48,000 nucleotides of DNA from Minisyncoccota bacterium (GTDB lineage Bacteria > Patescibacteriota > Minisyncoccia > Phycocordibacterales > UBA9973). How positions within the stretch are numbered: position 1 is the first letter of the stretch; every line of letters begins with the position of its first letter. Below, piece after piece: positions 2,247 through 47,363 of this stretch. A model generated the notes under the pieces. The model had not been told where the DNA came from, made no database searches, and saw only the letters and a list, made by a program, of their open reading frames with translations. The DNA is taken from the NCBI GenBank assembly GCA_041663005.1, contig JBAZRK010000001.1:288734-336733 (forward strand). Reading direction: 5' to 3'. The translations under genes and the position numbers were made by a program.

Positions 2247-2258
2247 AAGTAAATTATA

Positions 2259-4010
2259 TCACAAGAGCACTGCTTTTATGCGTCGAATGCCTTGTGCGAC
2301 TGCTTCCTCCTTCTGAATTTTAAATTGACCTAGCTCACTAGTGTTCTGTACGTGGGGTCCGCCACAGAATTCTTTTGAAAAAATATTCCCCTTCTCATCT
2401 TCTGCGAAGTAAACCGAAACAACATCGGCATACTTAGCGCCAAATTCCATCTCGGCGCCAATTTGCTGTGCTTCGGCAAAAGGCATTTCTCGACGAACCA
2501 TACTAAGCCCGAGTTTGATTTTATCATTCACCCAGTCCTCCACTTTTTTCTTCTCTTCATCGGTTAACTTGTGGTCACATAGAAAGTCTATGCGCAGACG
2601 CTCCTCGGTAATGTTGCTGCCCCTTTGCTTAACCTCCTTCCCTACTACATTTTGCAAGGCTGCGAGAAGTAAGTGGTGCGCGGTGTGAAGGCGCACAGTT
2701 TTCTCGTTGTGGTTAGCTAGTCCTCCCTTAAACATTCCAGCGGAAGCGGTTTGGGAAAGCTTCTGGTGCTCCGCCATTTTTTTCTTGAAATCTTCCACGT
2801 CTATAGTACGGCCTTGTTCCTGTGCCAATTCTAGTGTCAGTTCTATCGGGAAGCCATAAGTCGTAGCCAACACAAAAGGGTCTGTGCCCTTTTCAAATTC
2901 TTTTAGACCATGCTCGAGATTAGATTCAAATTTTTTTATTTCATTATCCAGAGTTCCTTTTATATAGTCATTTTTGTTAATAAAGCTTTCTGCGTAAAAT
3001 TCACCGTATTTAATTACAACATTATCCACAAGACCAACTAGAGTAGTAGTTGCTAGTTTAATATTATGGCTTTGCATTACTGCCCTCCTAATTAGCCTTC
3101 TTAACACATAGCCCGCATCTTTATTACTTGGCAAAACTCCGTCTGCTATCAAAAAAACTGCTGTACGAATATGGTCGGCGATTATTCGTTGCGCACGAAT
3201 ACTACTTACCTCACTTGATAAATTATTTATATTTTTTATCATGCCGACAAACAAATCAGTATCGTAAGCAGTTTGTTTCCCTTGCATCACTGCCGTAATT
3301 CTTTCCAGGCCTGCTCCTGTGTCAACATTTTTCTGTTTTAGTTTGCCGACAACTTTTCCATCTTTTTTCTCATACTCCATAAAGACGTCATTCCAAATTT
3401 CTATGACATCTTCATTCTTGACTGCTTGAATAAATCCTTCTTTATTCAAATCTCCCACATCGCCCGTCATATCATAAAACATCTCACTGCAAGGACCGCA
3501 AGGACCATTCTCACCAGGGCTCCACCAATTATCGCCCGCCGGAAGAGCATAGATTCTATTTTCTGAAATACCTTGTTTTATCCAAATATCTTTCGATTCT
3601 TGGTCATAAGGTGCATTTTCATCACCCTCAAAAATTGTTATGTAAAGTCGACTTACGTCGAGGCCCAATCCCTCCTCTTTCGAAGTCAGAAATTCATAGC
3701 TCCATTTTATTGCTTCTTCCTTAAAATAATCGCCCAGCGACCAGTTCCCCATCATTTCAAAAAATGAAAGGTGGCGCTTGTCCCCAATGTCATCCAGGTC
3801 ACCTGTACGTACACATTTCTGAATGTCTACAATTCTTTTCCCCATTGGGTGTTCTTGCCCGAGTAAATACGGCACCAAGGGCTGCATCCCTGCAGTGTTA
3901 AACAAAACCGACGGATCATTCTCGGGCACCAACGAGGCGGAAGGAATTATTTTATGCCCCCGATTTTCAAAAAATTTAAGGAATTTTGTACGAATTTCGC
4001 TAGACTGCAT
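2259..4010 (-). CDS. alaS: Alanine--tRNA ligase, short form ending after the editing domain
   Basis: LFNTAGMQP, HLSFFEMMGNWS, EIWNDVFM, VDTGAGLER, GYVLRRLIRRA and editing motifs HTAHH and EFCGGPH. Start placed at MQSSEIR (4010). Confidence 0.97.
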   Translation of the reverse strand: MQSSEIRTKFLKFFENRGHKIIPSASLVPENDPSVLFNTAGMQPLVPYLLGQEHPMGKRIVDIQKCVRTGDLDDIGDKRHLSFFEMMGNWSLGDYFKEEAIKWSYEFLTSKEEGLGLDVSRLYITIFEGDENAPYDQESKDIWIKQGISENRIYALPAGDNWWSPGENGPCGPCSEMFYDMTGDVGDLNKEGFIQAVKNEDVIEIWNDVFMEYEKKDGKVVGKLKQKNVDTGAGLERITAVMQGKQTAYDTDLFVGMIKNINNLSSEVSSIRAQRIIADHIRTAVFLIADGVLPSNKDAGYVLRRLIRRAVMQSHNIKLATTTLVGLVDNVVIKYGEFYAESFINKNDYIKGTLDNEIKKFESNLEHGLKEFEKGTDPFVLATTYGFPIELTLELAQEQGRTIDVEDFKKKMAEHQKLSQTASAGMFKGGLANHNEKTVRLHTAHHLLLAALQNVVGKEVKQRGSNITEERLRIDFLCDHKLTDEEKKKVEDWVNDKIKLGLSMVRREMPFAEAQQIGAEMEFGAKYADVVSVYFAEDEKGNIFSKEFCGGPHVQNTSELGQFKIQKEEAVAQGIRRIKAVLL

Positions 4011-4470
4011 CGTTATCAATATCGTCAGAAATTTTTCTAATAGGCTTCTCTATCACATTCATTGCGAGGAAAATGAAAAGTACTAAAACAGTTGAAATTA
4101 TGGCTAAGCTGAAAAGTCCGAAGCCCGCCGCCATACCTATGCCAGCCGTGACCCAGAGCCCTCCAGCAGTGGTGAGTCCGAGTAAACGATCGCCTTTGAG
4201 AATTATTGAACCCGCACCTAAAAATCCAATTCCCACAATAACCTGGGAAGCAATACGCGTCGGATCGAAACCCCCAACTACCGCATACTTAACGGCTATC
4301 AGTTCGGAAATGATAATGAAAACTGCTGAACCTAGAGACACTAAAGCGTGTGTTTTAATCCCCGCTTCTTTGTGGACGAGAAGTCGCTCCGCCCCTATTA
4401 ACATCCCCAGCACAACCGCAGTTACCAACTTTAAAATAAGATCGCCATTTTGCGCAAAAAATTGAGTCAT
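4000..4470 (-). CDS. MgtC/SapB family membrane protein
   Basis: IGAER..AGIKTHALV..DPTRIASQVIVGIGFLGAG..GLTTA..W..A.IG.AAG. Confidence 0.93.
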   Translation of the reverse strand: MTQFFAQNGDLILKLVTAVVLGMLIGAERLLVHKEAGIKTHALVSLGSAVFIIISELIAVKYAVVGGFDPTRIASQVIVGIGFLGAGSIILKGDRLLGLTTAGGLWVTAGIGMAAGFGLFSLAIISTVLVLFIFLAMNVIEKPIRKISDDIDNDAV

Positions 4471-4476
4471 AGGTAT

Positions 4477-4505
4477 ATTGTATAATACGAGGCTTATTTA
4501 GACAA
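4477..4505 (-). promoter_or_regulatory. sigma70-type promoter, leaderless geometry
   Basis: TTGTCT-17 nt-TACAAT-6 nt-ATG(4470). Confidence 0.7.
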
Positions 4506-5252
4506 CTTACCTTCGAGAAATAATTTCTCAAGCACGTACGCTAGACCATCTTCGTCCACAGATGGCGCAATTAAGTCAGCCTTGGCCTTAAGTTCTTCAG
4601 AGCCATTCGCCATGGCGACTTTATACCCCGCCAATTCAAAAAGCGGTAAATCATTATTACTATCCCCAACAGCAACAACCTCGTCTTTGTGTACCCCTAG
4701 CAGCTCTAGAAGCACTTCCATAGAATGACGCTTGGTGGCTTCAGAATGCGTTATATGAATATCAAAATGTCCTAGTGTCCAAGAAATTATTTTATGGGCA
4801 GATATGTCAGGTATTGAACTTAGTTTTTGCAAAATAATTTTCGTATCCTCTTCTGTCACTGGCTCGATATATATTATTCTCTCATCCTTTTTTGTAATTT
4901 TGTACTTTGCCAATGACCCCTCCGTGTCGTCACCTATAAAAACGTTATACTGATACTCCTCCGCAATTTCCATAACTTTTTCAATCTGAGCTTTGTCCAT
5001 ACTCTTTTCCCATAAAATCTTTTCCGTTATGGGGTCAATGATTCTAGTCCCACCATTTACAATACAGGGAGCAGTTAAGCCGAGCTCTTTTATTATATGG
5101 CCAGCTAGGCCAATGCCTCGGCCGGTTGCCGCACTCACAAAAACCTGATTTTTAATTTTTTTTATAATTTCTATCACCCGCGGCGAAGGTCTGCCGTCTT
5201 TTTTATTGGGAATAGTAGTTCCGTCTAAGTCTAAAATTACTGCTTTGTACAT
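4494..5252 (-). CDS. Cof-type HAD-IIB hydrolase
   Basis: ILDLDGT, AATGR, K-containing motif III, VGDSNNDLPLF. Start moved to MYKAV (5252), 1 nt after the upstream stop. Confidence 0.92.
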   Translation of the reverse strand: MYKAVILDLDGTTIPNKKDGRPSPRVIEIIKKIKNQVFVSAATGRGIGLAGHIIKELGLTAPCIVNGGTRIIDPITEKILWEKSMDKAQIEKVMEIAEEYQYNVFIGDDTEGSLAKYKITKKDERIIYIEPVTEEDTKIILQKLSSIPDISAHKIISWTLGHFDIHITHSEATKRHSMEVLLELLGVHKDEVVAVGDSNNDLPLFELAGYKVAMANGSEELKAKADLIAPSVDEDGLAYVLEKLFLEGKLSK

Positions 5253-5253
5253 C

Positions 5254-5988: not shown

Positions 5989-6012
5989 AATTTCATTATA
6001 CAAGTATTTACA

Positions 6013-7152: not shown

Positions 7153-7161
7153 ATATTCACC

Positions 7162-7689
7162 TTACAATTCCATCAATTTTTTGTAAAGCTCGTATGTAGC
7201 GCGAGCATCGGAGAGAGCTGTATGTGCCCGCTCATTTTTTATCCCGAAACGTAAGCATAATTCTCTAAGTGAGAGGTGGTCCAAGTCAGGCTCACGATGA
7301 AGCTTGGCCCAGGCTACAGACACGGTGTCTAGCCGGTGATAATGCAGAGTATTTGCTTTCCCAATTTTATTGAAACCATATTCTAAAAATCCGGCGTCAA
7401 AGGCAACGTTGTGTCCGACCATTATTGCGCCCTCCACTTTGTCGGCAAAAATTTTCATAGCTTCTGCGAGGGGCAAAGCATCAGTCCATTCTTCTTCTTT
7501 ATAGTGACACACTTTAAGCGAGACCGGATCGGCGTCTTCTATTCTCTCGGGCTTAACTTTTATTTCGAATTCTTCTATCACCTCTAGGTCGGGCGTTGTA
7601 AGAACACATCCAATTTGCAAAAGCTCGTGCTTCATTAGGTTAAGCCCACTTGTTTCCGTATCTATAAATGCATAGTTGTGTTTTCTCAT
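7162..7689 (-). CDS. DEDDh 3'-5' exonuclease (DnaQ-like)
   Basis: FIDTETSG, GHNVAFD, HTALSDA. Confidence 0.92.
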   Translation of the reverse strand: MRKHNYAFIDTETSGLNLMKHELLQIGCVLTTPDLEVIEEFEIKVKPERIEDADPVSLKVCHYKEEEWTDALPLAEAMKIFADKVEGAIMVGHNVAFDAGFLEYGFNKIGKANTLHYHRLDTVSVAWAKLHREPDLDHLSLRELCLRFGIKNERAHTALSDARATYELYKKLMEL

Positions 7690-8576: not shown

Positions 8577-8585
8577 ATATTAATT

Positions 8586-9965
8586 CTAGGTAGGTAAGTT
8601 TGGTGGTGGTGAAGCTTCCTTTGACTCAATACGCTCGAGAGTAGGCACCTTGAGTATCTGACCTGGGAAGTGCCAAAGCGTTGCAAGCTCTTCCGTGTTT
8701 AAGACGAAAGTTTCCGGATGGTGATAGGCATGGAACAAAAGCGACAGGGGCCAATGCATTGTATGCGTAGTAAACAACTGATGCCTTAGGGGTAAATGGA
8801 AAAATGCGCGCTCGCGATATTGTAGAAGCATACGATTAGCGAGCATCATAACTGTTTTTGCACCTATGGTGATGATACCGCCGTAGGCGTCCCCTTGGGT
8901 TGGGTTATATCTTATAATCCCGTTACAGTCCGGCATAGCGTACTGGCGGAAGATAAGACGGATATCGCGAGAAGCGTTGGTTCTTACTCCGGGATGAAAG
9001 ATTTCTTTCTTGGCCACATACATAGTTCGTATTCCTACATCAAAACCAATTTTTCCCGTCTTAGCGGCCATAACCGTCACCACGTTATTGTAGTAAGGGG
9101 GCAAACGCACAGCTTTTCCAGTATCAAAAAATTGTGTATAAGGCTCCGCCAATTTCTCTAGTTCATTTTTAGCATTTTCTACCCAAGACCATTTCTTGAA
9201 GAATGAGCCGGGCACAGGGTATTCCTTTTTTGAAGGAGTAACCACTATCTGCAACCACGCCTGCTCACCTTTTTTAAGTGAGCCAAAAAATTCTATCACG
9301 GGAGAAATCGGGTCAACCTTGAATTCTTCATGCGGGTCTTTGTCGAGACCAAAGTTTACATAAGTTTTAATAGGGTAAGCTTCCGGCTTGAGTAATTTCC
9401 ATTCACACCCCCACGCGTTCCAATCGCTTTCTGGTGTAATCTCATCAACTGCAAGAGTATAGTCCTCTACAGCCTTCACTTGCGCTTGCGGATACTGCGC
9501 ATAAAGTTGAGTTTCAATCAAGCTTCTTATGCGCGTCGGCGTCCTGACGTAGAAATGTACTTGACCGTCGATTGAAGCAATCTCAAGTGAGAACCAGAAC
9601 CATACTGCTCCTTGCCAATACTCTTCTTTACCCCCTTTCATGCTCCAATGGTACAGCGCGTTGGTCATGAAGAGTTCCATCGCCTTCGGGCTACGCTCCA
9701 CGTCGCGAGGCGGCACTATCTCAAGTAGAACATAATCAATTCCCGAAATAAAATCTTGCTGTATGTAATGCACCCAGAGTTTCCAAGCAAGCCAACCCAA
9801 AACAATTGTTCCTACCACAGCCAAAAGGCCCTTCCAGGCATCGTATCTCCATATTAAATAAACACCCCCAAGAATAAAAATCCAATACCAACGTTCGGTC
9901 AGCAGGTTTTCTATAGGGTCAAAAATTTTATCCGTTGCACTTTTAGGTGCTACAGGGCCAGCCAT
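8586..9965 (-). CDS. Conserved Parcubacteria membrane protein of unknown function
   Basis: Two N-terminal TMs; LLEIVPPRDVERSPKAME, FSLEIAS, LYAQYP, YPIKTY, LNTEELATLWHFP resemble the N-terminal partner of CPR VirB4/TraG-like ATPases (recall). Confidence 0.6.
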   Translation of the reverse strand: MAGPVAPKSATDKIFDPIENLLTERWYWIFILGGVYLIWRYDAWKGLLAVVGTIVLGWLAWKLWVHYIQQDFISGIDYVLLEIVPPRDVERSPKAMELFMTNALYHWSMKGGKEEYWQGAVWFWFSLEIASIDGQVHFYVRTPTRIRSLIETQLYAQYPQAQVKAVEDYTLAVDEITPESDWNAWGCEWKLLKPEAYPIKTYVNFGLDKDPHEEFKVDPISPVIEFFGSLKKGEQAWLQIVVTPSKKEYPVPGSFFKKWSWVENAKNELEKLAEPYTQFFDTGKAVRLPPYYNNVVTVMAAKTGKIGFDVGIRTMYVAKKEIFHPGVRTNASRDIRLIFRQYAMPDCNGIIRYNPTQGDAYGGIITIGAKTVMMLANRMLLQYRERAFFHLPLRHQLFTTHTMHWPLSLLFHAYHHPETFVLNTEELATLWHFPGQILKVPTLERIESKEASPPPNLPT

Positions 9966-10029
9966 GCTTATATTTTAATATAAACAAGGGAAAAAACAAA
10001 GCATTCAGACGAGAGGAGTCGAAACACTC

Positions 10030-11058
10030 TTACGCTGCGGTATAGAGACCGCTTTTGTTCTTCTTGAAATACTTAGGATTCGCAAGATTTACTAAAATTG
10101 TGTTCTTCTTGAAGTATCTTTCTTTCATTACTTGCTTGACTATATCGTCCTTGGATAGCGGACCTGACTTCTTAATTATGTCCTCGATAACTTCGCGTGC
10201 AATGCCCGCCTTGTAGCCCCATTCGGACAACGCGTACATACCACGTCCAACTAAAACAAATCGAGAATCTTTAATAAGCTCGTTGTGACAAGTCGCATAG
10301 TGGATCTTCTTACCGAAAATCTTACCGATAGCGTCAGCAACTTCCTTGAAGTGCATTGGTGAACCGTGACGACGCATTACTAGAAAGGCATAGTCCTTTA
10401 CTCCGCGAGTGCGGATGTTCGGTGAGTCTGCCTTACCCCATTCGCCGAGAGGATTTTTCGCTACAGACTTGGACATAGAAAGCCAGCGTTTAACTATCTC
10501 ATCATCGCGGTAGTGTTCGGCAACGTCCTTCATGTGGTCGAAGAATCTTTTTATCATTTCTGTTTCGGGTATCAAATCTTCGTCGTTTAGTGAAGCATAC
10601 AGCTTGCGCAATGTGTCGTGAATTTTGTCTGTCATCTCGTCATCCACACTCCAGCGCGCATGAAAATGTTCATCCTCACGATGTTTTTTGAAAGCATCTC
10701 CGAGTTCAAGCATAAAATGCACGTGGTTCTGCGTAGCTAGGTCTTTGGAAATGTGTGGAAGTAGTTCATGCTCGGCAACTATCGCCCCCAGCTGATGCAT
10801 AACTTGTTTCAATTCTTCGAAAGCAGCTTGCTCCTTTTTATAAGCCGCTGACTTTTTAATCAACGCAATTGCGGCGTCTTCCACCTGGCGTACTCGCTCG
10901 CGGGTAATATTGTATTTCTTGCCTATTTCTTCGAGAGTTTTCCTTTTACCGTCTGCGGTCAAACCGAAACGATTCATTATAACGTCTGAAGACCTGGTCT
11001 GAAGACCGGAGATAATATTTTTGGTGACTTTTTTAGGTTTGAAGGATATCGTTGGCAT
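10030..11058 (-). CDS. Sigma-70 region 4 HTH fused to a C-terminal HARE-HTH (RNAP delta-like) domain
   Basis: RFGL..TLEEIGKKYNITRERVRQVE (sigma4) and PMHF.EV..HNELIKDSRFVLVGRGMYALSEW (HARE-HTH). Confidence 0.8.
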   Translation of the reverse strand: MPTISFKPKKVTKNIISGLQTRSSDVIMNRFGLTADGKRKTLEEIGKKYNITRERVRQVEDAAIALIKKSAAYKKEQAAFEELKQVMHQLGAIVAEHELLPHISKDLATQNHVHFMLELGDAFKKHREDEHFHARWSVDDEMTDKIHDTLRKLYASLNDEDLIPETEMIKRFFDHMKDVAEHYRDDEIVKRWLSMSKSVAKNPLGEWGKADSPNIRTRGVKDYAFLVMRRHGSPMHFKEVADAIGKIFGKKIHYATCHNELIKDSRFVLVGRGMYALSEWGYKAGIAREVIEDIIKKSGPLSKDDIVKQVMKERYFKKNTILVNLANPKYFKKNKSGLYTAA

Positions 11059-16812: not shown

Positions 16813-16833
16813 ACCCTAATCATACCCCCACAC

Positions 16834-18027
16834 CTATTTAATTTCAAGTTTAGAAATAGGTGTGGGGGCATACCACTTTTTTAGTTTTTGCAAAATTTGC
16901 CCGAGGGCCTTAATAACATAATCAATATCTTGTTTCTTGGTATCTGCGCCGAGCGAGAAACGTAATGCTCCGATCTCGGGGTCAGCATCAGGGCGAATAG
17001 CTTTTATAACATACGAACCTTCGGCGCGAGAACTTTTACAAGCGCTCTTCGAAGAGGCCATTATTCCCTTTGCTGAAAGTTCTATGACGAGAAGGTCGCT
17101 TGGAATTTTCGGAAATGTCACACTCATGTTGTTAGGTAATCGATTTTCCAAATCGCCGTTTATAATGAATTTCGGACGTCCAACGTCCGAAATTCGGACG
17201 TCCAACGTCCGAAAGAAATAATCACGGAGTTTAATTACACGTCTAGCTTCTTTTTCTCTAACTTTTTGCGCCACACTTAACGCGCTAGCAAATTCTAAGA
17301 TTGCTTTCAGATTTTCCGTACCGGGACGAAGTCCCCGCTCTTGGTCCCCGCCGCCGAAAATGTTTTGAATTTCAACCGACTTTTTCTTAAGGAGTACGCC
17401 AACTCGTCCGGAGCCTGAGATTTTCGAGCCCGACAAAGAAAGCATATCTACCCCAAGCTTTTCTATGTTTAAATCCAAATAGTTTACTGCCTGCACGGCG
17501 TCAGTATGAAAATAAATATTATTTCTGTTGTTTGTTTTTTTATAGTGCCTAATTTCTTTGGCAATTTCTTTTATCGGCTGGATTGTACCTATCTCATTGT
17601 TGGCATACATTACCGACACAAGGACGGTATTTTTTTTAATCGCTTTTTTAATTTTTTTAGAATCTACAATCCCGTTTTCTTCTACGGGCACAATTGTAAT
17701 CTCTGCCAGCTTTCTTTTCTCTAGTAGTTTATAAGTTTCCAAAACGGAAGGGTGCTCTATGTTTGTCGTAATAATATGCGGAAGCTGGGTAAAGTTTTTC
17801 TGCATCTGCGAAGCTAAGACAACTCCCTGAATCGCCAAATTGTTACTCTCTGTGCCCCCACTGGTAAAAATAATTTCCTCAGCTCGTGCACCTAAAATTG
17901 TGGCCACTTCGTGGCGAGCCTTTTCGAGTTTTCGTTTCGCAGAAATGCCTATTTCGTGGATGGAGCTTGGGTTCGGGGTCGCCGAAGCAGCGTAGTCCAG
18001 ATATATATATTTCATTGATTTTGGCAT
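16834..18027 (-). CDS. iscS: Cysteine desulfurase (IscS/NifS, group I)
   Basis: IYLDYAA, IFTSGGTESNN, IEHPSV, FHTDAVQ, SLSGSK, LRPGTEN, SSKSAC. Start placed at MPKSMKY (18027). Confidence 0.93.
   Translation of the reverse strand: MPKSMKYIYLDYAASATPNPSSIHEIGISAKRKLEKARHEVATILGARAEEIIFTSGGTESNNLAIQGVVLASQMQKNFTQLPHIITTNIEHPSVLETYKLLEKRKLAEITIVPVEENGIVDSKKIKKAIKKNTVLVSVMYANNEIGTIQPIKEIAKEIRHYKKTNNRNNIYFHTDAVQAVNYLDLNIEKLGVDMLSLSGSKISGSGRVGVLLKKKSVEIQNIFGGGDQERGLRPGTENLKAILEFASALSVAQKVREKEARRVIKLRDYFFRTLDVRISDVGRPKFIINGDLENRLPNNMSVTFPKIPSDLLVIELSAKGIMASSKSACKSSRAEGSYVIKAIRPDADPEIGALRFSLGADTKKQDIDYVIKALGQILQKLKKWYAPTPISKLEIK
17171..17213. repeat. Two tandem copies of the 21-nt palindrome TTCGGACGT-CCA-ACGTCCGAA inside iscS
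   Basis: Copies at 17171-17191 and 17193-17213; perfect 9-bp arms. Confidence 0.95.
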
Positions 18028-18051
18028 AAAAGTAGTATATATTAAGCATGC

Positions 18052-18507
18052 ATGAATATAAAGCTTCAAATAGCTTTTTTTGTTTTGGCGAGCATGGCTA
18101 TTCTCATAGGCGTCTTTTGGATGATTAGGACCGAAAAGCGATTAAAAAGATTTTTCCTCGGCAAAAAAGCCAAGGACCTCGAAGACACGATAGTAACGCT
18201 GAGCCACGACATTCTAGAGCTGAAGAGTGCAAGAGAAAAAATTGAAAAAGAAATCACCGTGATAAACGGCAAATTGAGAAAGAGTGTGCGCGGTCTTGAA
18301 ACTATCCGCTTCAACCCTTTTCCGGATCAAGGCGGCAACCAGAGCTTCGCTATCGGTATGTTAAACGAAGATGGAGACGGGCTGGTGCTTTCCAGCTTGT
18401 ACTCTAGAGACAGGATGAGCGTCTTCGCCAAGCCCGTAAAGGGCGGCAAACCTGCCTACGAGCTCACTGCTGAAGAAAAGGAAGCGCTAAGCAAGGCACG
18501 CGTCTAA
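18052..18507 (+). CDS. DUF4446-like protein
   Basis: N-terminal TM, coiled coil, IRFNPFPDQGGNQSFAIGML..G.VLSSLYSRD..VFAKP. Confidence 0.85.
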   Translation: MNIKLQIAFFVLASMAILIGVFWMIRTEKRLKRFFLGKKAKDLEDTIVTLSHDILELKSAREKIEKEITVINGKLRKSVRGLETIRFNPFPDQGGNQSFAIGMLNEDGDGLVLSSLYSRDRMSVFAKPVKGGKPAYELTAEEKEALSKARV

Positions 18508-22489: not shown

Positions 22490-22518
22490 TTGACTTTTAT
22501 ACAAGTATATGCTATACT
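22490..22518 (+). promoter_or_regulatory. sigma70 extended -10 promoter, leaderless geometry
   Basis: TTGACT-17 nt-(TGC)TATACT-6 nt-ATG(22525). Confidence 0.75.
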
Positions 22519-23241: not shown

Positions 23242-23283
23242 AACTCAACTTAATATTGTAAAATAAGGCTCAAATGGCCGTCA

Positions 23284-23315
23284 GTCCCGTAGTAAGCTCA
23301 GCTTTACTACGGGAT
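23284..23315. repeat. REP-like hairpin, family B copy 2
   Basis: TCCCGTAGTAA-gctcagct-TTACTACGGGA, 11-bp perfect stem abutting a -35 box. Confidence 0.7.
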
Positions 23316-23343
23316 TGACTTTTTAGCTTGACTATGGTATAAT
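23315..23343 (+). promoter_or_regulatory. Near-consensus sigma70 promoter for the island
   Basis: TTGACT-17 nt-(TGG)TATAAT. Confidence 0.8.
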
Positions 23344-23383
23344 GTAAAGGTTGTATAGGTTCGTTGATAATTAAATAGGTTAT

Positions 23384-23565
23384 GGATGGTTTGCTTACAA
23401 AGTGGCTGAAATATCGGCCCCCTCGTGAGCAAACCATCCCAGCAAAAGCGTCCGACACGCTTGTCCTTCCGTAGCTCGTAGCGAAGGAGGATAGTCGGAA
23501 CGCTAGGAGTTTTAGAGTTTCAGAAGTTAGACACACTTACCGCGCCTCGAAAGGGCGCAAGGAGG
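23384..23565 (+). ncRNA. Highly structured ~220-nt 5' leader (putative cis-regulatory RNA)
   Basis: 14-bp stem 23384-97/23426-39 with inner hairpin; stem 23447-56/23494-504; GAAA hairpin 23542-58; AAGGAGG at 23559-65. Confidence 0.5.
23463..23492. repeat. REP-like hairpin, family A copy 1
   Basis: GTCCTTCCGTAGCTCGTAGCGAAGGAGGAT; shares GTCCT head and TAGCGAAGGAGGAT tail with 45556-45583. Confidence 0.7.
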
Positions 23566-23569
23566 CGTT

Positions 23570-26175: not shown

Positions 26176-26502
26176 TTACTGCAGCTGATCCCCTTTCACG
26201 TCGATCGCCCCGCCATCCACATCCACGTAATTAATGTTCAGGGTATTTAGGATAATGTTCATTATCGTCCAGACGCCCAGCATTATGGTAATACCGAGTA
26301 TCCCCCAAATCATATGATTCCGCCCGGTAGATTTCGCTTCTTCGCTTTCTTGATTCATTAGGAACTCAAGAATGCCATAGAGGAAGAAAACTATAGCCAA
26401 GGCGAACAGGAAGAGTATCAGCGGATTTATTATCTCGCTATTAACTTTGCCTATGAAAGAATCCAGAGAGGCGTAAGCGATTTTCGGAGAAAATAAATCC
26501 AT
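26176..26502 (-). CDS. TrbC/VirB2-like (T4SS-type) pilin
   Basis: IINPLI..ALAIVFFLYG..F..EEAKSTGRNHMIWGILGITIMLGVW. Confidence 0.8.
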   Translation of the reverse strand: MDLFSPKIAYASLDSFIGKVNSEIINPLILFLFALAIVFFLYGILEFLMNQESEEAKSTGRNHMIWGILGITIMLGVWTIMNIILNTLNINYVDVDGGAIDVKGDQLQ

Positions 26503-26513
26503 ATTCGTTTGCT

Positions 26514-26903
26514 TTAGTAAGGCGTAGTCGGATAGGTAATGTCCTGGCCGGCGTTATCAACTCCGAAAGTGTTGGTCAAAATTTTAACCAAGCCCCAGAG
26601 ACCGATGATAACAGCAAGACCGATGATACCGAAGATGATTCGGTCTCGGCCAGCTTTCTTGGCTTCTTCGTCGCTCGCAATAACGTATGTAAGTACTCCC
26701 CAGATGAAGATAACGACACCCAGGGCAATTAAAATCGGAACAATGGTATTAAGAATATCGCCGATTTTACATGCAAACGTAGTCAAATCTCGCACTGCTG
26801 CGCCAGGCACACACCTATTACCACCACCCACATTCGCTGCTGCGGATGCCAAGAGAGGCGAACCTAGAACCAAACCCAACCCTATAATTAACTTCTGTTT
26901 CAT
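26514..26903 (-). CDS. TrbC/VirB2-like pilin
   Basis: Signal peptide, Cys pair, ALGVVIFIWG..Y..DEEAKKAGRDRIIFGIIGLAVI. Confidence 0.8.
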   Translation of the reverse strand: MKQKLIIGLGLVLGSPLLASAAANVGGGNRCVPGAAVRDLTTFACKIGDILNTIVPILIALGVVIFIWGVLTYVIASDEEAKKAGRDRIIFGIIGLAVIIGLWGLVKILTNTFGVDNAGQDITYPTTPY

Positions 26904-26994
26904 AATAATAATTTATAATCTAATAATTTTTACGACCAAACTATTTATAATTACCATAGAATTATACCACAAGCATAAGGGGAAAATAAAGCAA

Positions 26995-27705
26995 CTATTG
27001 CGACGGTGGGCAGCCGGCTGGCGGGCATACCTGCGGTAAGACCGGTCCCCCGATACCGAAAGTCTCAGTTAAAATAGCTACCAGGCCCCAGATAGAGAGC
27101 ATGACAGTAAGCGCCACTATGCCCCATATCATAAATTGCTTACCTTGCTCCCGTTTAGCCTCTTCGTCAGCGTTAATAATGAAAAATTTGATAGCGCCCC
27201 AAATGAAAACGACAGTAGCCACCGCGAAGATAAGCGGTATAAAAGAATCATTAATTAATCGGGTTACGTAGCACAAAACATCTTTAAGCGAAGAGTCGTT
27301 CCCTATCTCGCAAGTGGAGCTACCAGTGTTGCCTACCTTTAGGGGTGCAAGCTCCGGCGCATACGCGCGCAGGTTAAACGTAGTCACCACAATATTCACC
27401 AAGCCCCAGAGACCAATGATAACAGCGAAGCCTATAAGCCCGTAGATAATTTGGTCCCTCCCCTTTGACTTGGCTTCCTCACCGTCTGCAATTACATACC
27501 GGATTATTCCCCAGAGGAAATACACAACTCCAAGCGCAATCAATACGGGAATAACGGAATTAAGTAAGCTATGGAATTTACAAATCAAACCCCCTAGGCC
27601 CGGGAAGGCATCGCAAGCCGAAATGGGATTCTGGAGATTACCTAAAGGAGTGATTATAAAAGCGAAAGCTGCGGGATACGGGAGAAATTTAAGATACTTT
27701 TTCAT
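26995..27705 (-). CDS. Tandem two-domain TrbC/VirB2-like pilin
   Basis: Two repeats: FLWGIIRYVIADGEEAKSKGRDQIIYGLIG and FIWGAIKFFIINADEEAKREQGKQFMIWGIVA. Confidence 0.8.
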   Translation of the reverse strand: MKKYLKFLPYPAAFAFIITPLGNLQNPISACDAFPGLGGLICKFHSLLNSVIPVLIALGVVYFLWGIIRYVIADGEEAKSKGRDQIIYGLIGFAVIIGLWGLVNIVVTTFNLRAYAPELAPLKVGNTGSSTCEIGNDSSLKDVLCYVTRLINDSFIPLIFAVATVVFIWGAIKFFIINADEEAKREQGKQFMIWGIVALTVMLSIWGLVAILTETFGIGGPVLPQVCPPAGCPPSQ

Positions 27706-27735
27706 AATTCCAGAAGATTAATTGATAATTAGTAA

Positions 27736-28128
27736 TTATTGCCCCAGCGTGGTTATAGTGGTAGATATCATCTCGGCGATGGCCCAAGAGCCTAGTAATA
27801 TAGTTGCTCCTATTACTGAATAAAGGAGCGCGTTCTTCGCTTCGGTCAATTTCTCCTCCTTGCCTCGGGCGAATACGAAAAGGAAGCCGGAGTAAATAAT
27901 TGCCAAAGCTACAACAGGAATACCCACCTTAAGGGCGCCAACTAAGACCGACTTTATTAAAAGCGGAAAGGATGTTGCTGCAATGGGTGGACATATTTTC
28001 CCAGCAGCCGGGTTACAAGTTGGTGGTGGAGTTATCGGAGTATTTGTATCAGCAAAAGAAATTACTGGCAACAAAGCAAATGCAAGAATTAAAATTAATT
28101 TCCCAAAATTGTTTTTTATAAAATTCAT
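27736..28128 (-). CDS. TrbC/VirB2-like pilin
   Basis: Signal peptide, Cys pair, ALAIIYSGFLFVFARGKEEKLTEAKNALLYSVIG. Confidence 0.8.
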   Translation of the reverse strand: MNFIKNNFGKLILILAFALLPVISFADTNTPITPPPTCNPAAGKICPPIAATSFPLLIKSVLVGALKVGIPVVALAIIYSGFLFVFARGKEEKLTEAKNALLYSVIGATILLGSWAIAEMISTTITTLGQ

Positions 28129-28135
28129 AGTTTTA

Positions 28136-28546
28136 TTATACCTCAGCTGTAAGACCTATCCAAGCGCCATTGAAGCCGAAGAGCGTCAGAATAGTGCTAA
28201 TAATAAGCCAGGCCGCTACCGCGATAATAAGCCCTAAAACTGTGTTGGTGAAAATCTTTTTCGCTTTAGCCCTCTCCCCTGACGCCTCTCCACCCGAGGT
28301 AACCATAATTACCCCAGCGTAAGCGAACATTATGGCCGCAATAGGCACGAACATTTTAAACAAGAGAAAGTCGATAATTTTATTAACCATCTCCATTAAC
28401 GCATTGAAATCACAAGGGTCTGTGAGAGTGTTGGTGCACGGAACAAGGCCAGGTTCCGGCACAGGGTCTTCGGCTAATGACACGAAAGGCATCACGAGCA
28501 TGAGCGCGAGAACTAAGAAGGTAACAAAATGGGTAATTTTTTTCAT
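28136..28546 (-). CDS. TrbC/VirB2-like pilin
   Basis: GLVPC..PCDF, AIMFAYAG..VTSGGE..AKAKKIFTNTVLGLIIAVAAWLII. Confidence 0.82.
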   Translation of the reverse strand: MKKITHFVTFLVLALMLVMPFVSLAEDPVPEPGLVPCTNTLTDPCDFNALMEMVNKIIDFLLFKMFVPIAAIMFAYAGVIMVTSGGEASGERAKAKKIFTNTVLGLIIAVAAWLIISTILTLFGFNGAWIGLTAEV

Positions 28547-28550
28547 ATCT

Positions 28551-29843
28551 TTATTTTAGCAATAAAAGCTCTAGCTTGGAACTAGCGTCTTTGACGGCGT
28601 CGGATTCTGTTAAGTTGTTCGAGAGAACTGAGTTAACCATACCGCGGAATATGTTATCCGTGTCGACAGGCGACGGGTCCAGCCAGCTCCTGGCATACAG
28701 GGCGGAACTATAGAAAATCGGAGAAAAGGAATCTTCTGTAGGCGGCACTGCCAGCAGGTCTCTCCGTGCCGGAGCGACGCCTAGCATCGCAGCGTATTTG
28801 GCGGCGAAGTCGGTGGATGAGAGCAGGCTCGCCGCAGTGAGCGCTGTATTTATATTTTTCGAAGCTGAGGACACTGCCACGCCAGTAACCCGAGCGAGGG
28901 TTAATTTCGTCTTGGCATCTTTGATTTGCGGTACAGAAGCTATGAAAAAGTTCTGGTTCGGATTCTTGTTAACCAAGGATTGCAGTTCACTGGCGTAACC
29001 GAAGTAAAACGCGAGATCCTCTCTGGAAAAAACATCGACTGAACTTGCAAAGGAACGATTCCAAGAATATAGGGCGCTATTAGGGTCGGCGAAACTTGTA
29101 TAAAATTGGACAATAGAGGGTAAGCTGTACGTTCCCACCGGGGTGTCGAGCGTAGATTTGAGCCTATCGCCTTGTTCAGTGACAATAGGGTTACCGGCCT
29201 GCATAAAAAGCATCGCAAGTATGTCCTTGGCGTGAGTCACGTTCGCGTATTGCCCCAATGCGACCCCACTTCTACTTATAGTGTTGGCATCGTCCTTATC
29301 GGTAAGCTTGGCGACATCTATGGAAAATTCTGCCCAGTCTTTCGGCGGGAAAACTATCCCCTTCGCATCGAGCATACTTCTGTTGTGATAAAGCAAAAGC
29401 GGGTCAATGGAAAGCGGAAAGGCCATTATCCCCTGACTGGTCAAGAAGACTTCCCCTGCCCCGGCAAAAATATTTTTAAAAGTGGCGACGGGGTAGCTCG
29501 CGTAAGGAATAGCAATAATTTTATTGGCATAACCGTAAGCTAAATCATCCGAAATGAAAAACAAGTCGGGGCCCACTCCCGAGGCCAAAGCTTCCAAGAG
29601 ATCTTGGTCGAAAGTATCGGCTGATTTCTCTTCATATTTCAAAACGAAGGTCGGGTTGGCATCATTGAACTCTTCAAGCGGTTGGGTCATTAAAGCTGTC
29701 GGTACTGTGCCCCAGAGCACCACAGTGCCCAAGCTCCCTTCGCTCCCACCACCGATAGGAATAGCTCCGGAGAAAACCAAAACACCGAAAACTGCGGCGA
29801 CAATGAAAGCTATTATTAGTATAAGTTGAAAATTAAATTTCAT
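28551..29843 (-). CDS. Extracellular solute-binding protein (family 1, sugar-binding-like)
   Basis: N-terminal TM, VVLWG, LLEALASGVGPDLF, PLSIDPLLLYHNR, PKDW.EF. Confidence 0.82.
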   Translation of the reverse strand: MKFNFQLILIIAFIVAAVFGVLVFSGAIPIGGGSEGSLGTVVLWGTVPTALMTQPLEEFNDANPTFVLKYEEKSADTFDQDLLEALASGVGPDLFFISDDLAYGYANKIIAIPYASYPVATFKNIFAGAGEVFLTSQGIMAFPLSIDPLLLYHNRSMLDAKGIVFPPKDWAEFSIDVAKLTDKDDANTISRSGVALGQYANVTHAKDILAMLFMQAGNPIVTEQGDRLKSTLDTPVGTYSLPSIVQFYTSFADPNSALYSWNRSFASSVDVFSREDLAFYFGYASELQSLVNKNPNQNFFIASVPQIKDAKTKLTLARVTGVAVSSASKNINTALTAASLLSSTDFAAKYAAMLGVAPARRDLLAVPPTEDSFSPIFYSSALYARSWLDPSPVDTDNIFRGMVNSVLSNNLTESDAVKDASSKLELLLLK

Positions 29844-30368: not shown

Positions 30369-30394
30369 TTATATATTGTATCAAATACAAACGA

Positions 30395-33720: not shown

Positions 33721-33824
33721 TCCTTATATTATAGCAAATTAGAGCTGAAAGGACAAACGAAAAATGCTTGCTTTTTATGTTATTTGTAGTAGAGTGAGAA
33801 CACAATAGAATTATTATTAAAAGC

Positions 33825-33898
33825 AGGATTTGGGGTAACCCTCGGCGGCGCAAGCTAAAGAGATCCTAAACCTTTATCCGCTTTAATGCGGATTTTTT
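33825..33898 (+). promoter_or_regulatory. Structured rpsA leader ending in a terminator-like hairpin
   Basis: AGGAT/ATCCT stem enclosing GGG-TAA-CCC and GGC-GCAA-GCT hairpins, then ATCCGC-TTTAAT-GCGGAT-TTTTT 14 nt before the ATG. Confidence 0.5.
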
Positions 33899-33912
33899 AT
33901 TAGAAATCATTT

Positions 33913-36422: not shown

Positions 36423-36536
36423 ATTTGGGCGGTATCTGCTCCGCCAACTCCTTTTCTTCTGTAACGTCCAAACAAGCTCTAACTAAAACATCCTTATGTT
36501 ATTAGGCTTACGCCTTTACATTAAGGATATACATAC

Positions 36537-36698: not shown

Positions 36699-36727
36699 TT
36701 GCAAAGAAAGGTTAAAACGAGTAGTAT
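36699..36727 (+). promoter_or_regulatory. sigma70 promoter with leaderless geometry, preceded by a DnaA box (TGTGGATAA, 36677-36685)
   Basis: TTGCAA-17 nt-TAGTAT-6 nt-ATG(36734). Confidence 0.6.
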
Positions 36728-41287: not shown

Positions 41288-41878
41288 TTATCTTAAGGCT
41301 TCATTTACTATTCTCTCTAATTCGGACTCGTTTGTAAACACGAAGGATTTAATGCCTATAGATTCAGCTGCTTTTGCATTCTTTTCTTGGTCGTCGAAAT
41401 ACAAGCACTCCGGAGGAGTGAGGTTATGCTCTTTCAAAATATGCTGCCAGGCACGCACGTCAGGCTTGATGAATCCCGTTTGCCAAGAATAATAGACCTT
41501 GTCGACTGCCTCCTCGATGAGCTTGTATCGGTTATTGTGAAAAATGCGTTCTCGGAAATTGTTGGACAGGATAAAAACCTTGATACCTCGGCTCCGAAGC
41601 TCTGCTGTGTAAGTAAACATCCGTTCAGAAATTTCTTCTCCCTCAAACCAATAGTTCCAAAAGTCGTTCTCGGTAAAATTAATTTTCAAATCTTTAAGAA
41701 AAGGGCCCAAGTGCCGCCAAGCGGGACCAGCATCCGGCTGCCTCATCTTATGCATAGCTTCGCGCAATTTCGACTTAAATATTTCACCTTCTACACCGAA
41801 ATCCTTTTCTACTCGCTCGCTAAGTTTAGGCGATTGTAAGAATATTCCGTTTAAATCCAAAATTACCGCTTTAATCAT
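41288..41878 (-). CDS. HAD-superfamily phosphatase (YihX-like)
   Basis: ILDLNGI, ILSNN, KPD, LYFDD..N..AA. Confidence 0.85.
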   Translation of the reverse strand: MIKAVILDLNGIFLQSPKLSERVEKDFGVEGEIFKSKLREAMHKMRQPDAGPAWRHLGPFLKDLKINFTENDFWNYWFEGEEISERMFTYTAELRSRGIKVFILSNNFRERIFHNNRYKLIEEAVDKVYYSWQTGFIKPDVRAWQHILKEHNLTPPECLYFDDQEKNAKAAESIGIKSFVFTNESELERIVNEALR

Positions 41879-44967: not shown

Positions 44968-44990
44968 AAATTACATCTTAGCATAAAAAC

Positions 44991-45551: not shown

Positions 45552-45555
45552 CTGT

Positions 45556-45583
45556 GTCCTCCGAAGCTTTAGCGAAGGAGGAT
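45556..45583. repeat. REP-like hairpin, family A copy 2
   Basis: GTCCTCCGAAGCTTTAGCGAAGGAGGAT. Confidence 0.7.
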
Positions 45584-45588
45584 TATGT

Positions 45589-46251: not shown

Positions 46252-46258
46252 AATTTTG

Positions 46259-46340
46259 TGGGCATGAGAGGATTTGAACCTCCAAGGATCGCTCCATACG
46301 ATTCTGAATCGTACGCGTATACCAATTCCGCCACATGCCC
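46259..46340 (-). tRNA. tRNA-Leu(CAG)
   Basis: GGGCATG/CATGCCC acceptor, TACGA-TTCAGAA-TCGTA. Confidence 0.95.
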
Positions 46341-46348
46341 TTTTATTT

Positions 46349-46422
46349 TGGTGGACCTGGGGGGAATCGCACCCCCGACTCGTCCATGCCATGGACGCGT
46401 GTTACTACTATACTACAGGCCC
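46349..46422 (-). tRNA. tRNA-Ala(GGC)
   Basis: G3:U70 identity pair, CGTCC-ATGGCAT-GGACG, encoded CCA. Confidence 0.95.
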
Positions 46423-46424
46423 TA

Positions 46425-47336
46425 TTATAAACTAAGACTTCTTTCAAGGATATGCGCGACAACATCCTCTATTTTCGTCCCAGCCAGTTCGCACGTCTCG
46501 GCGAAGTGTGATCCTGCCTTCACCTCAGGAACATTTTCAAATTCCAAAAGATAAACTTTCCTCCTCGGTGTAAGCAAGAAATCGGATTTTAGGTAATGGC
46601 CGGCATTTAAGTGCTGGTGCAAGTGCTTGGCCAGTGAATACAATAGCTCTTTCTCCTCCGAGGAAAAGGCTCCGAAGGTATTACTAAGCGGGAAAACGTA
46701 GACATCTTCGTTCCGAAAATCGGGCATCGAGTGGATTGAGGCAATTTTACCAGAAATAAATTCTTCAACTATTAAACTCTCCCCGTGATTCACTCCGTCC
46801 TCTATGGCATCCACCAATTCGGGAAAGGTCTTTGCCAGGTGGATACCCATATTCGCATCGGGGGTAAAAGATTTAACTAGCCAAGGCGCGCCGAATTTCT
46901 CGTGGATTTCTTTGGCTTTTTTGAGTGCGTATTTCTCTCTCGGGCCATCGAAGTCTTTCTGGTAGAGAGGAATGAGTATAGTCCGCGGTAAGGATACCTC
47001 TACGCCCCGCAGATGTTCTCGCAAAAGCTCGCGGCTGCCTTTGAGCGCTGAGAAAAACGGCGCAGGCGATATATGCGGTATCGAAAGGTTATCGAGCGAA
47101 TGTGAAAAATGGGGGTGCGCCACGTTCCAAACCAAGTCCACCCGGTGCATGAGATCGGCAAGGGCGACTGGCCGGCCCGCTACATGCCACAGGCCTTCTT
47201 TGTCGACCAGAATATCTACAGGTTTATATTTTTCGGAAAAATTTTCGGCAAGGTAGCTAATAATCTCGCCGCCTTTCTTGAGCGAATGAAAATAATTCTC
47301 CCCTGCTCCCCCCCGCAAAACTCCTATGCGTTTCAT
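46425..47336 (-). CDS. Degenerate D-alanine--D-alanine ligase-like ATP-grasp protein
   Basis: MKRIGVLRGG, LIVEEFISG, SDFLL..VYLLE..VP. Start at MKRIG. Confidence 0.7.
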   Translation of the reverse strand: MKRIGVLRGGAGENYFHSLKKGGEIISYLAENFSEKYKPVDILVDKEGLWHVAGRPVALADLMHRVDLVWNVAHPHFSHSLDNLSIPHISPAPFFSALKGSRELLREHLRGVEVSLPRTILIPLYQKDFDGPREKYALKKAKEIHEKFGAPWLVKSFTPDANMGIHLAKTFPELVDAIEDGVNHGESLIVEEFISGKIASIHSMPDFRNEDVYVFPLSNTFGAFSSEEKELLYSLAKHLHQHLNAGHYLKSDFLLTPRRKVYLLEFENVPEVKAGSHFAETCELAGTKIEDVVAHILERSLSL

Positions 47337-47363
47337 ATAAATAATTATAACACTAAAAAGCAA

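Follow-up and report, generated by a model that had tools for sequence, protein, structure and literature searches.

The window analysed here is a stretch of 48,000 nt from a Minisyncoccota bacterium (contig JBAZRK010000001.1, positions 288,734 to 336,733), in which we considered 42 genes and the 3' end of the 16S rRNA. The original prediction had listed 15 genes with a -10-like hexamer 6–7 nt before the start codon, and all 15 hexamers, their gaps and their ATGs were found as described, the start codon being ATG at every site (15/15). The features are given below with their coordinates in the window, where the gap is the number of nucleotides between hexamer and start codon and the -10 and -35 assignments are putative.

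2253..2258, minus strand: -10 TATAAT, gap 6, before the ATG at 2246 of a FtsA/actin-like protein
4477..4482, minus strand: -10 TACAAT, gap 6, with -35 TTGTCT at 17 nt; MgtC-family gene, start 4470
5995..6000, minus strand: -10 TATAAT, gap 6; SDR/epimerase-like gene, start 5988 rather than TTG 6003
8583..8588, minus strand: TAGAAT, gap 6, a doubtful promoter; mltG, start 8576; the preceding gene ends in this TAG
9972..9977, minus strand: -10 TAAAAT, gap 6; 459-aa hypothetical protein, start 9965
16819..16824, minus strand: -10 TATGAT, gap 6, with -35 TTGAAA at 17 nt; hypothetical gene, start 16812
18034..18039, minus strand: -10 TATACT, gap 6; cysteine desulfurase (nifS), start 18027 rather than TTG 18069
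18038..18043, plus strand: TATATT, gap 8; divergent DUF4446 gene, start 18052; not among the sites originally listed
22490..22518, plus strand: full promoter TTGACT-17-TGcTATACT, gap 6; choice-of-anchor-Z repeat protein, ATG 22525
28135..28140, minus strand: -10 TATAAT, gap 6; T4SS-pilin-like gene, start 28128; the preceding pilin gene ends with the TAA inside the box
28553..28558, minus strand: TGcTAAAAT, gap 6, uncertain; pilin-like gene, start 28546; the last T starts the upstream stop
30375..30380, minus strand: TGaTACAAT, gap 6; methyltransferase, start 30368, 26 nt past the gyrA stop
33728..33756, minus strand: promoter TTGTCC-17-TGcTATAAT, gap 7; metal-dependent hydrolase-like gene, ATG 33720
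36722..36727, plus strand: -10 TAGTAT, gap 6, with -35 TTGCAA at 17 nt; 415-aa hypothetical protein, start 36734
44975..44980, minus strand: TGcTAAGAT, gap 7; secA, start 44967; adjoins a preceding terminator-like hairpin
47344..47349, minus strand: TGtTATAAT, gap 7; D-Ala-D-Ala-ligase-like gene, start 47336 rather than GTG 47456
47842..47860, minus strand: 16S rRNA 3' end ...GUGGAUUAAUUCAAUU, from the Rfam alignment (SSU_rRNA_bacteria positions 1363-1533); anti-SD CCUCC absent

The 16S tail reads GGAUUAAUUCAAUU and contains no CCUCC, and one of the relatives (L125) has a similar tail, GGAAUAAUUCAAUUUG. No positional peak of SD motifs appears at any offset in the window or in the relatives, SD-like 4-mers standing upstream of 2–8% of genes, while the same pipeline returns a clear SD peak in the E. 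coli K-12 control. The proposed loss of the anti-SD is thus borne out by the 16S tail, and SD motifs are likewise missing upstream of the genes.

To locate the hexamer relative to the genes, starts in the window were taken as those of the longest ORF, picked blind to the motif. With these starts TANNNT occupies gap 6 in 13 of the 42 genes and other offsets in 0–5, whereas 2000 dinucleotide-preserving shuffles of the 40 nt upstream of the window genes gave 1.47 ± 1.19 at gap 6 with a maximum of 7; pooling gaps 6 and 7 yields 15 real cases versus 2.9 ± 1.6 shuffled. Such a hexamer precedes 4.8% of all ATGs in the window. The relatives, 160 related loci comprising 2.4 Mb and 2184 genes (starts are longest-ORF calls, some of them wrong), show a sharp peak at gap 6, with 381/2184 genes versus ~90 per adjacent offset, counts that are pseudo-replicated in that identical gene neighbourhoods were drawn from up to 160 relatives. 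Counted irrespective of annotation, there are 118 cases of TATAAT with an ATG at gap 6, and 11–46 at other gaps. Of 1306 full promoter-like sites (at least 10/12 matches), 102 are followed by an ATG at gap 6, which in 84 cases begins an ORF of 80 aa or more; gaps outside 6–8 give 0–11. At the family level, which lessens the pseudo-replication and comprises only 59 families, 9 have a gap-6 box in at least half of their members, and any other gap 0–2. The E. coli K-12 control (100 kb, same pipeline) has no gap-6 peak (2/96 genes). Comparison with shuffled sequence, the kind of check put forward with the original prediction, places the gap-6 peak of the window well over background, as comparison with adjacent offsets does for the relatives.

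Such a pattern might be produced by chance, if AT-rich upstream regions and the TAA or TAG stops of tight junctions place TANNNT at a constant distance ahead of the following start codon. Three listed hexamers do overlap a stop codon (8576, 28128 and 28546, as originally noted), and a spacing of 9 nt between same-strand genes, at which the stop supplies the TA, is over-represented in the relatives (47 pairs versus 13–14 at 8 and 10 nt), the subset with this spacing lacking TGn and the AAT core. The site at 8576 fits this account: it has no TGn, a poor -35 and the lowest flank score (-5.3, 8th percentile), and relatives sharing the gene junction have shorter spacers without a box; it is probably a chance match made by the TAG stop codon. 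For the whole set, however, chance is very improbable and was rejected on the shuffles (1.5 versus 13 real), the -35 and TGn companions, the gene-by-gene conservation and the absence of such a peak in E. coli; the peak is also just as evident in divergent genes and in those lying over 60 nt from a neighbour.

When TANNNT at gap 6 is the sole selection, T appears at position -35 in 64% and at -34 in 57% of genes, TTG lies at 17 nt in 15% versus 2% otherwise, and G-14, indicative of an extended -10 (TGn), is present in 46% versus 17% otherwise. TANNNT at control gaps of 0, 3 and 15 shows no enrichment of -35 or TGn. The hexamer spectrum, TATAAT > TAAAAT > TATACT > TACAAT, matches the -10 consensus. 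A -35 at 16–18 nt and/or TGn, characteristic of sigma-70-type promoters, is thus found, with individual full promoters before 22525 and 33720. The seven TGn extensions and the three -35 matches at 17 nt (4470, 22525 and 36734) given originally are all correct, and two further -35 matches, TTGAAA at 16812 and TTGTCC at 33720, can be added; where a promoter lies within coding sequence, the protein may explain part of the -35 conservation, as for TTGGAT in the conserved AWIG codons before 28128. Because TTG at 17 nt and TGn accompany TANNNT at gap 6, the boxes appear to be promoters and not mRNA signals, and the proposal that they are sigma-70 -10 boxes holds on the -35 spacing, TGn, the spectrum and the conservation at the same gap gene by gene. 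Transcription start sites cluster around a point 7 bp downstream from the -10 (PMC12641261), and a Pribnow box 6–8 nt from gene starts is a mark of leaderless transcription (PMC6028130). A purine is found 7 nt past the box in gap-7 and gap-8 genes too, and position -2 is A or G in 68% of gap-8 sites with a strong hexamer.

A ribosome without an anti-SD should have some replacement signal, and the hexamer could accordingly be a non-SD translation signal in the mRNA that the altered 16S tail or S1 recognises, with transcripts beginning further upstream. A context rich in A/U, poor in G and with U at -1 is indeed common to all genes, with or without a box, and is probably a translation signal. 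The hexamer, however, would in that role not bring TTG at exactly 17 nt upstream together with TGn; TATAAT lacks complementarity to the 16S tail, and the 5-mers that could pair with this tail have no preferred position ahead of the starts. The motif is also confined to a minority of genes and missing from the highly conserved rpsA, infB and gyrA. We consider a translational role of the hexamer most unlikely and retain its assignment as a promoter element.

Four of the 15 starts (5988, 18027, 22525 and 47336) differ from the longest-ORF start. Of the three picked partly on the motif, 18027 and 22525 are confirmed by orthologues, and for 5988 the family alignment begins at residues 6–7 of the TTG version, the position of the proposed ATG; 47336, unlike these three, has no independent support. 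With longest-ORF calls, ATG accounts for 89–92% of starts in motif genes versus 78–80% in others, a modest gap.

Eleven of the 15 sites retain box and gap in orthologues, two (5988 and 47336) have no orthologue among the related loci, 28546 is weakly conserved and 8576 is chance-like. At 2246 the TGA directly upstream doubles as the alaS stop and as TGn; the orthologues listed read tgTTATAAT-6-ATG, with 15/34 at the projected start and a family gap-6 fraction of 0.50. TANNNT at gap 6 is present in 25/40 orthologues of 4470, in many of which a different gene precedes and its stop overlaps the box. Relatives of 9965 read tTAAAATatangnATG (family gap-6 fraction 0.54, 52 members), and the box of 16812 is kept in 16/22 orthologues by projection and at 0.84 in the family analysis, many orthologues having TTGACA-17-TGgTATAAT-6-ATG. 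The nifS orthologues listed retain TATACTATTTTT-ATG/GTG, a few using GTG; the divergent box of 18052 shares 2 bp with the nifS -10, which lies on the other strand, and TANNNT lies at gap 8 in 88% of the 25 members of its family. The promoter of 22525 is kept in 5/7 orthologues, which have no ATG at the position of 22519. For 28128 the gap is 6 in 27/45 orthologues and 7 in 7 more, for 30368 it is 6 in 58/74 and 7 in 7, and for 33720 the box lies at exactly gap 7 in 65/72, position -1 being A or G in the orthologues listed. Six of the 8 orthologues of 36734 keep the box and likewise the -35, tTTGCAaa. TGnTAnnnT precedes secA at gap 6 in 4/5 orthologues and at gap 8 in one, and the SecA profile match begins at residue 5. 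The motif score of 28546 is good, yet its box is kept in just 5/44 orthologues. Genes without a box remain so in orthologues (gyrA 2/79, rpsA 0/66, infB 0/75; typA, clpB and others consistently).

About 17–32% of genes carry a box, ~30% in the window and, net of background, ~17% in the relatives. The original description of a largely leaderless transcriptome was therefore overstated, with gyrA, rpsA, infB, typA and clpB all lacking the box. Leaderless transcription, including promoters embedded in upstream genes, is nevertheless well supported by the sequence patterns, and the remaining genes are, by the same reading, leadered, SD-less and A/U-rich. The further suggestion that genes have their own promoters inside apparent operons stands in part: many boxes lie behind or partly in an upstream same-strand gene, as does the -35 region of 30368 within the gyrA end, but 8576 is chance-like and 28546 weak. 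The internal promoters could be real and still minor or conditional, with polycistronic read-through and coupling or re-initiation making most protein, in which case the transcriptome would not be mainly leaderless. We give this a substantial chance, though distinctly below even. Overlaps of -4 (ATGA, 72 pairs) and -1 nt (TAATG, 27 pairs) are the commonest same-strand junctions in the relatives, where the box marks only ~17% of genes, and U at -1 is kept by internal motif genes (69–74%) but not by divergent ones (30–33%), as dual use would predict. Against a minor role, internal boxes are as conserved as those at operon heads (30368, 58/74; 28128, 34/45) and also carry -35 and TGn, which argues that they are maintained by selection.

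We thus consider it likely that sigma-70 promoters abutting the ATG give leaderless or near-leaderless mRNAs for a subset of genes in an SD-incapable Patescibacterium. The host is a groundwater member of the Patescibacteria (CPR), Paceibacteria/Nomurabacteria-like, with a ribosome incapable of SD pairing. Between about a fifth and a third of the genes would be transcribed from sigma-70-type promoters of the form TTGnnn, 17 nt, TGnTAnAAT, the -10 box ending 6 nt, less often 7–8 nt, ahead of the ATG. RNA polymerase would start ~7 nt downstream of the box, at the first base of the ATG or at a purine 1–2 nt ahead of it, so that the mRNA leader would be absent or nearly so. By analogy with other bacteria, the ribosome would bind through the 5'-terminal AUG with initiator tRNA and IF2, independently of SD pairing. 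Since intergenic spacers are tiny, many promoters sit within the final codons of the gene before them or in its stop codon, and operon-internal genes could therefore also yield their own leaderless mRNA. The other genes would be leadered or translationally coupled, with SD-independent initiation in a context that has U at -1 and is rich in A/U and poor in G. The sequences themselves show the motif with its position, promoter-like companions and conservation, and the lack of SD and anti-SD; from these we infer where transcription starts, how the ribosome binds and what each internal promoter contributes.

The mechanism itself is known as the leaderless transcription of GeneMarkS-2 group C, found in Actinobacteria, Deinococcus-Thermus and some Mycoplasma (PMC6028130, PMC3160421, PMC3898074, PMC12340547). 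The likeness lies in a Pribnow box 6–8 nt before the start of a sizeable share of genes (~20–40%) with no SD there, in transcription start sites expected on the A of the ATG or beside it, and, as far as longest-ORF calls show, in mostly ATG starts. In group C, however, the remaining genes rely on SD sites and the anti-SD is retained in the 16S, whereas here the anti-SD is absent and no class of genes, including the box-less ones, carries SD sites. Code-11 group C genomes are almost all GC-rich, while this one is mid to low (~44%). Many boxes here are embedded in the end of a preceding gene on the same strand, whereas leaderless starts in the group C model fall at the first genes of operons. 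The box-less leadered genes, with no SD and an A/U-rich, weakly structured region before the start, resemble those of Bacteroidota/FCB group B (PMC6028130). In group B a single non-SD motif precedes every gene and leaderless transcription is scarce, whereas here a promoter-type signal marks a subset of genes. Bacteroidota generally also keep the anti-SD sequence. A further comparison is with the anti-SD-lacking, reduced-ribosome subgroup of Parcubacteria (Tsurumaki et al. 2022, RNA; PMC9297842), which belongs to the same broad lineage and whose 16S 3' end is, as here, without CCUCCU; another criterion for this subgroup would be overlap with the lineages that lack ribosomal protein uL1, whose locus lies outside the window. 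The short bS1 here (363 aa) accords with the 3–4 S1 domains reported for CPR (PMC9297842). That study reports the anti-SD loss and presumes that SD helices do not form; the route of initiation is unaddressed and leaderless mRNAs are unmentioned. In the literature, we found no paper reporting a leaderless-promoter architecture in CPR.

The signature of promoters abutting the ATG is a candidate part of the answer to how anti-SD-lacking Parcubacteria initiate translation. We tentatively propose, at somewhat less than even confidence, that their initiation is wholly SD-independent and follows two routes, leaderless mRNAs, including those from embedded promoters that would give operon-internal genes a 5'-terminal AUG of their own, and, for leadered and coupled genes, a U(-1), A-rich, G-poor context. 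If true, the spread of ATG-adjacent promoters would have made the loss of the anti-SD tolerable, or followed from it, and this bacterial lineage would have a gene-expression logic nearer to that of many archaea.

All 15 hexamers of the sigma-70 -10 type that the original prediction had placed 6–7 nt before a start codon, and taken as signs of leaderless mRNAs, were found at their positions with the gap indicated, and the starts are ATG in 15 of 15 cases. The seven extended -10 elements (TGn) and three -35 matches were also correct, and two more -35 matches, at the genes starting at 16812 and 33720, had been missed. Because some starts had admittedly been chosen by the pattern itself, we recounted with starts fixed mechanically as the first ATG, GTG or TTG of each long open reading frame (ORF). 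With these longest-ORF starts, 13 of 42 window genes carry TANNNT with a gap of 6 nt to the start codon, compared to 0–5 at every other offset between 34 and -25. The enrichment was borne out by 2000 dinucleotide-preserving shuffles of the 40 nt upstream of the starts, which gave 1.47 ± 1.19 genes with a maximum of 7. Applied to E. coli K-12 (100 kb), the script found the gap-6 hexamer at 2 of 96 genes and a clear Shine-Dalgarno (SD) peak at gaps 5–9, indicating that the pipeline neither makes the gap-6 signal nor overlooks a real SD. Three further hexamers at gap 6, all weak and on the minus strand, had not been listed: TAAGAT at 41290–41295 before 41283, TAAGGT at 7159–7164 before mnmA (7152), a family with gap 6 in 39% of its members, and TAAATT at 26910–26915 before 26903, conserved in 4 of 46 orthologues.

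The window (48 kb, G+C ~44%) encodes ~43 proteins and 8 tRNAs and contains the last 159 nt of the 16S rRNA on the minus strand. Its translation proteins include a 586-aa AlaRS, a 505-aa IF2 without the N-terminal region and a 363-aa S1, next to TypA, ClpB, GyrA, SecA, MurC/E and a row of T4SS-pilin-like genes, a set typical of Patescibacteria (CPR). The closest relatives of TypA and GyrA, at 67–92% identity, belong to MAGs labelled Nomurabacteria, Paceibacterota, Minisyncoccia or Patescibacteria, many of them from groundwater, and to metagenome contigs. Sequencing-run searches located the window sequence in two groundwater metagenome DNA runs; searches with the window and two relatives (L150 and L127) found no RNA run. 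The window also encodes a 342-aa protein (10030–11058, minus strand) with an N-terminal sigma-70 region-4 helix-turn-helix (residues about 9–80) and a weak RNAP-delta-like stretch near residue 220–290, an unusual architecture conserved in 64 relatives.

To extend the count, we used 160 related loci (2.4 Mb) collected around TypA and GyrA. With longest-ORF starts, TANNNT is found at gap 6 in 381 of 2184 genes compared to 74–185 at other offsets, with gaps 7 and 8 slightly raised, these counts representing repeated sampling of two genomic neighbourhoods. The peak is also seen independently of annotation, as ATG follows TATAAT at gap 6 118 times and at other distances 11–46 times. Among 1306 full promoter-like sites (TTGACA-N16-18-TATAAT, at least 10 of 12 positions matching), 102 are followed by an ATG at gap 6, which in 84 cases begins an ORF of 80 aa or more, compared to 0–11 at gaps outside 6–8. 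When genes were grouped into 59 families, each with at least five co-linear members, the box occupied gap 6 in at least half of the members in nine families, gap 7 in one and gap 8 in one, and any other gap in 0–2 families.

Conservation of the box at individual starts (start-codon position, gene where named, state of the orthologues)
2246, FtsA/actin-like: box at the projected start in 15/34 orthologues, most of those shown reading tgTTATAAT-6-ATG
4470: box and gap in 25/40 orthologues
9965: box in a family fraction of 0.54
16812: box in 16/22 orthologues, often as TTGACA-17-TGgTATAAT
18027, minus strand, cysteine desulfurase: orthologues shown read TATACTATTTTT-ATG
22525: box in 5/7 orthologues, TTGACT-17-TGcTATACT
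28128, pilin-like: box in 34/45 orthologues
30368, methyltransferase: box in 65/74 orthologues
33720, hydrolase-like: box in 65/72 orthologues, at a gap of 7, the same as in the window
36734: box in 6/8 orthologues
44967, secA: box in 4/5 orthologues

Four of the 15 listed starts differ from the longest ORF. Orthologues confirmed the choices made at 18027 and 22525. The boxes at 5988 and 47336 are perfect TATAAT hexamers in genes with no orthologues among the 160 related loci; that of the pilin-like gene at 28546 is kept in 5 of 44 orthologues; and at 8576 (mltG) the TAG stop of the preceding gene supplies the first half of TAGAAT, relatives sharing this junction have no box, and the flank score is the worst. 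Overall, eleven of the 15 sites are well supported and two are plausible, with one more being uncertain and the last doubtful. Genes without the box remain without it: it occurs in 2 of 79 orthologues of gyrA, 0 of 66 of rpsA, 0 of 75 of infB, 1 of 64 of the sigma-domain protein and 1 of 53 of the hypothetical gene hyp36422. The starts of the cysteine desulfurase gene (18027, minus strand) and a DUF4446 gene (18052, plus strand) lie 24 bp apart (18025–18054), and their -10 boxes at 18034–18039 (minus) and 18038–18043 (plus) share 2 bp, one box on each strand, a putative compact bidirectional promoter that is conserved in relatives, with both genes predicted to be leaderless or nearly so. Behind a solute-binding-protein gene, a tandem array of five small genes (26176–28546, minus strand) encodes proteins with T4SS-pilin or Mbov_0395-like pilin domains; in this array a well conserved promoter of the leaderless type is present only at 28128.

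A hexamer at a fixed distance from the start codon could in principle be a promoter or a translation signal, and three lines of evidence favour a promoter. Genes selected on TANNNT at gap 6 alone show a -35 element exactly 17 nt upstream, with T-35 in 64–71% and T-34 in 57–69%; TTG occurs at this distance in 15% of gap-6 genes compared to 2%. The extended -10 is likewise present, with G-14 in 41–49% versus 17% and T-15 in 49–75%. Neither element accompanies TANNNT at gaps 0, 3 or 15. The gap-6 spectrum is dominated by TATAAT (53), TAAAAT (29), TATACT (27) and TACAAT (13), whereas gap-0 hexamers are unspecific AT-rich strings. Transcription start sites centre 7 bp downstream of the -10 element (PMC12641261), and in the few gap-7 and gap-8 families the base 7 nt after the box is likewise mostly a purine (A/G in 66% of gap-7 cases, at -1, and in 68% of gap-8 cases, at -2), which fits the requirement of a transcription start. 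The boxes are predicted sigma-70 promoters whose +1 would fall on the A of ATG or 1–2 nt before it, and we infer transcription start sites at or near the ATG.

The peak is present in every gene context: the gap-6 fraction is 21% for divergent genes and, for genes with a same-strand neighbour, 18% at spacings ≥60 nt, 28% at 15–59 nt and 17% at <15 nt, with the -35 and TGn companions still present in the tightest class. The genes at 2246, 4470, 5988, 16812, 28128 and 30368 lie 4–26 nt behind the preceding gene, as do the weaker 8576 and 28546. The proposal that genes have their own promoters inside apparent operons thus holds, with the caveat that the apparent conservation of the -35 may partly reflect coding constraint. 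Stop-to-start spacing at same-strand junctions of the related loci has a spike at 9 nt (47 pairs versus 13–14 at 8 and 10), where the TA of the stop codon can start a TANNNT at gap 6; this subset is without TGn and the AAT core. A stop-codon artefact would cover at most these junctions and 8576, leaving the overall peak unexplained.

The usual bacterial 16S rRNA ends in GGAUCACCUCCUUU. The window 16S ends in ...GUGGAUUAAUUCAAUU instead and hence has no anti-SD; in L125, the one relative covering this part, the tail is GGAAUAAUUCAAUUUG. At no offset are SD-like 4-mers present upstream of more than 15 of 1137 genes in the relatives, and only 2–8% of genes have one 4–11 nt before the start. A replacement SD was rejected, as 5-mers able to pair with the altered tail are not concentrated at any position before the starts.

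The signature does not extend to a largely leaderless transcriptome as originally claimed: it is found on ~14 of ~43 window genes and, net of background, ~17% of relatives' genes, a minimum estimate given that longest-ORF calling misplaces some starts. Genes without the box are predicted to be leadered or coupled. A conserved CACAATAAT-like box lies about 25 nt upstream of gyrA, the starts of rpsA and hyp36422 are directly preceded by conserved hairpins, and the commonest gene junctions in relatives are ATGA and TAATG overlaps. In the window and related loci, box-less ATG starts have U/T at -1 in 54–66%, nearly exclude G from -1 to -8 and are A-rich from -2 to -13, which may be how start codons are marked for ribosomes that have no anti-SD. 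U at -1 is at background in divergent motif genes (30–33%) compared to 54–61% in leadered genes, a contrast that is suggestive as to whether this base is transcribed; because identical gene families were sampled many times over, the contrast is confounded and was not taken as proof.

Several leader-like structures were noted. The rpsA hairpin (ATCCGC-loop-GCGGAT plus T-run, 33876–33912, plus strand) is found 15–20 nt ahead of the start both in the window and in the majority of relatives. There is no convergent gene that would need a terminator at this place, and the hairpin may be a regulatory leader element for S1. Directly before 36422, a GGCGG-N8-CCGCC hairpin (36423–36450, minus strand) is retained in relatives, with both arms changed in those shown (GGCGG/CCGCC, AGCGG/CCGCT), and a predicted promoter about 110 nt upstream (36565–36537) apparently drives the gene. 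A strong terminator hairpin (23280–23319, plus strand) is followed by TTGACT-17-TGgTATAAT (23315–23343), the best promoter-like site between 20 and 40 kb of the window. No ORF lies behind it, and the 220 nt between this site and the next gene show unusually strong folding (z = -4.1); an Rfam search of 23344–23569 matched no family, and the segment may be a small RNA or a long, structured leader belonging to the gene at 23570.

A Pribnow box 6–8 nt from gene starts defines the 'group C' genomes of GeneMarkS-2 (PMC6028130), comprising Actinobacteria, Deinococcus-Thermus and some Mycoplasma, in which 25–50% of transcripts are leaderless (PMC6028130, PMC3160421, PMC3898074, PMC12340547). Unlike these, the window lineage has no SD for any gene class, its genome is of mid to low GC, and its promoters are often embedded in upstream genes. 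A published study reports that a subgroup of Parcubacteria has lost the anti-SD and that CPR have a short bS1; it does not address start-codon selection or initiation after this loss (PMC9297842). Our literature search combining leaderless or anti-SD with CPR lineage names found no report of leaderless genes in CPR. The mechanism is already known; what is new is that it occurs in this lineage, alongside a complete lack of SD pairing, and that its promoters are frequently located within operons. Through embedded internal promoters, genes can have transcription starts of their own even where the genome leaves hardly any space between them. In anti-SD-less genomes, gene-calling software that expects SD sites will put starts in the wrong place, and the promoter-at-ATG signature offers a concrete, testable partial answer to how starts are selected in anti-SD-less Parcubacteria.
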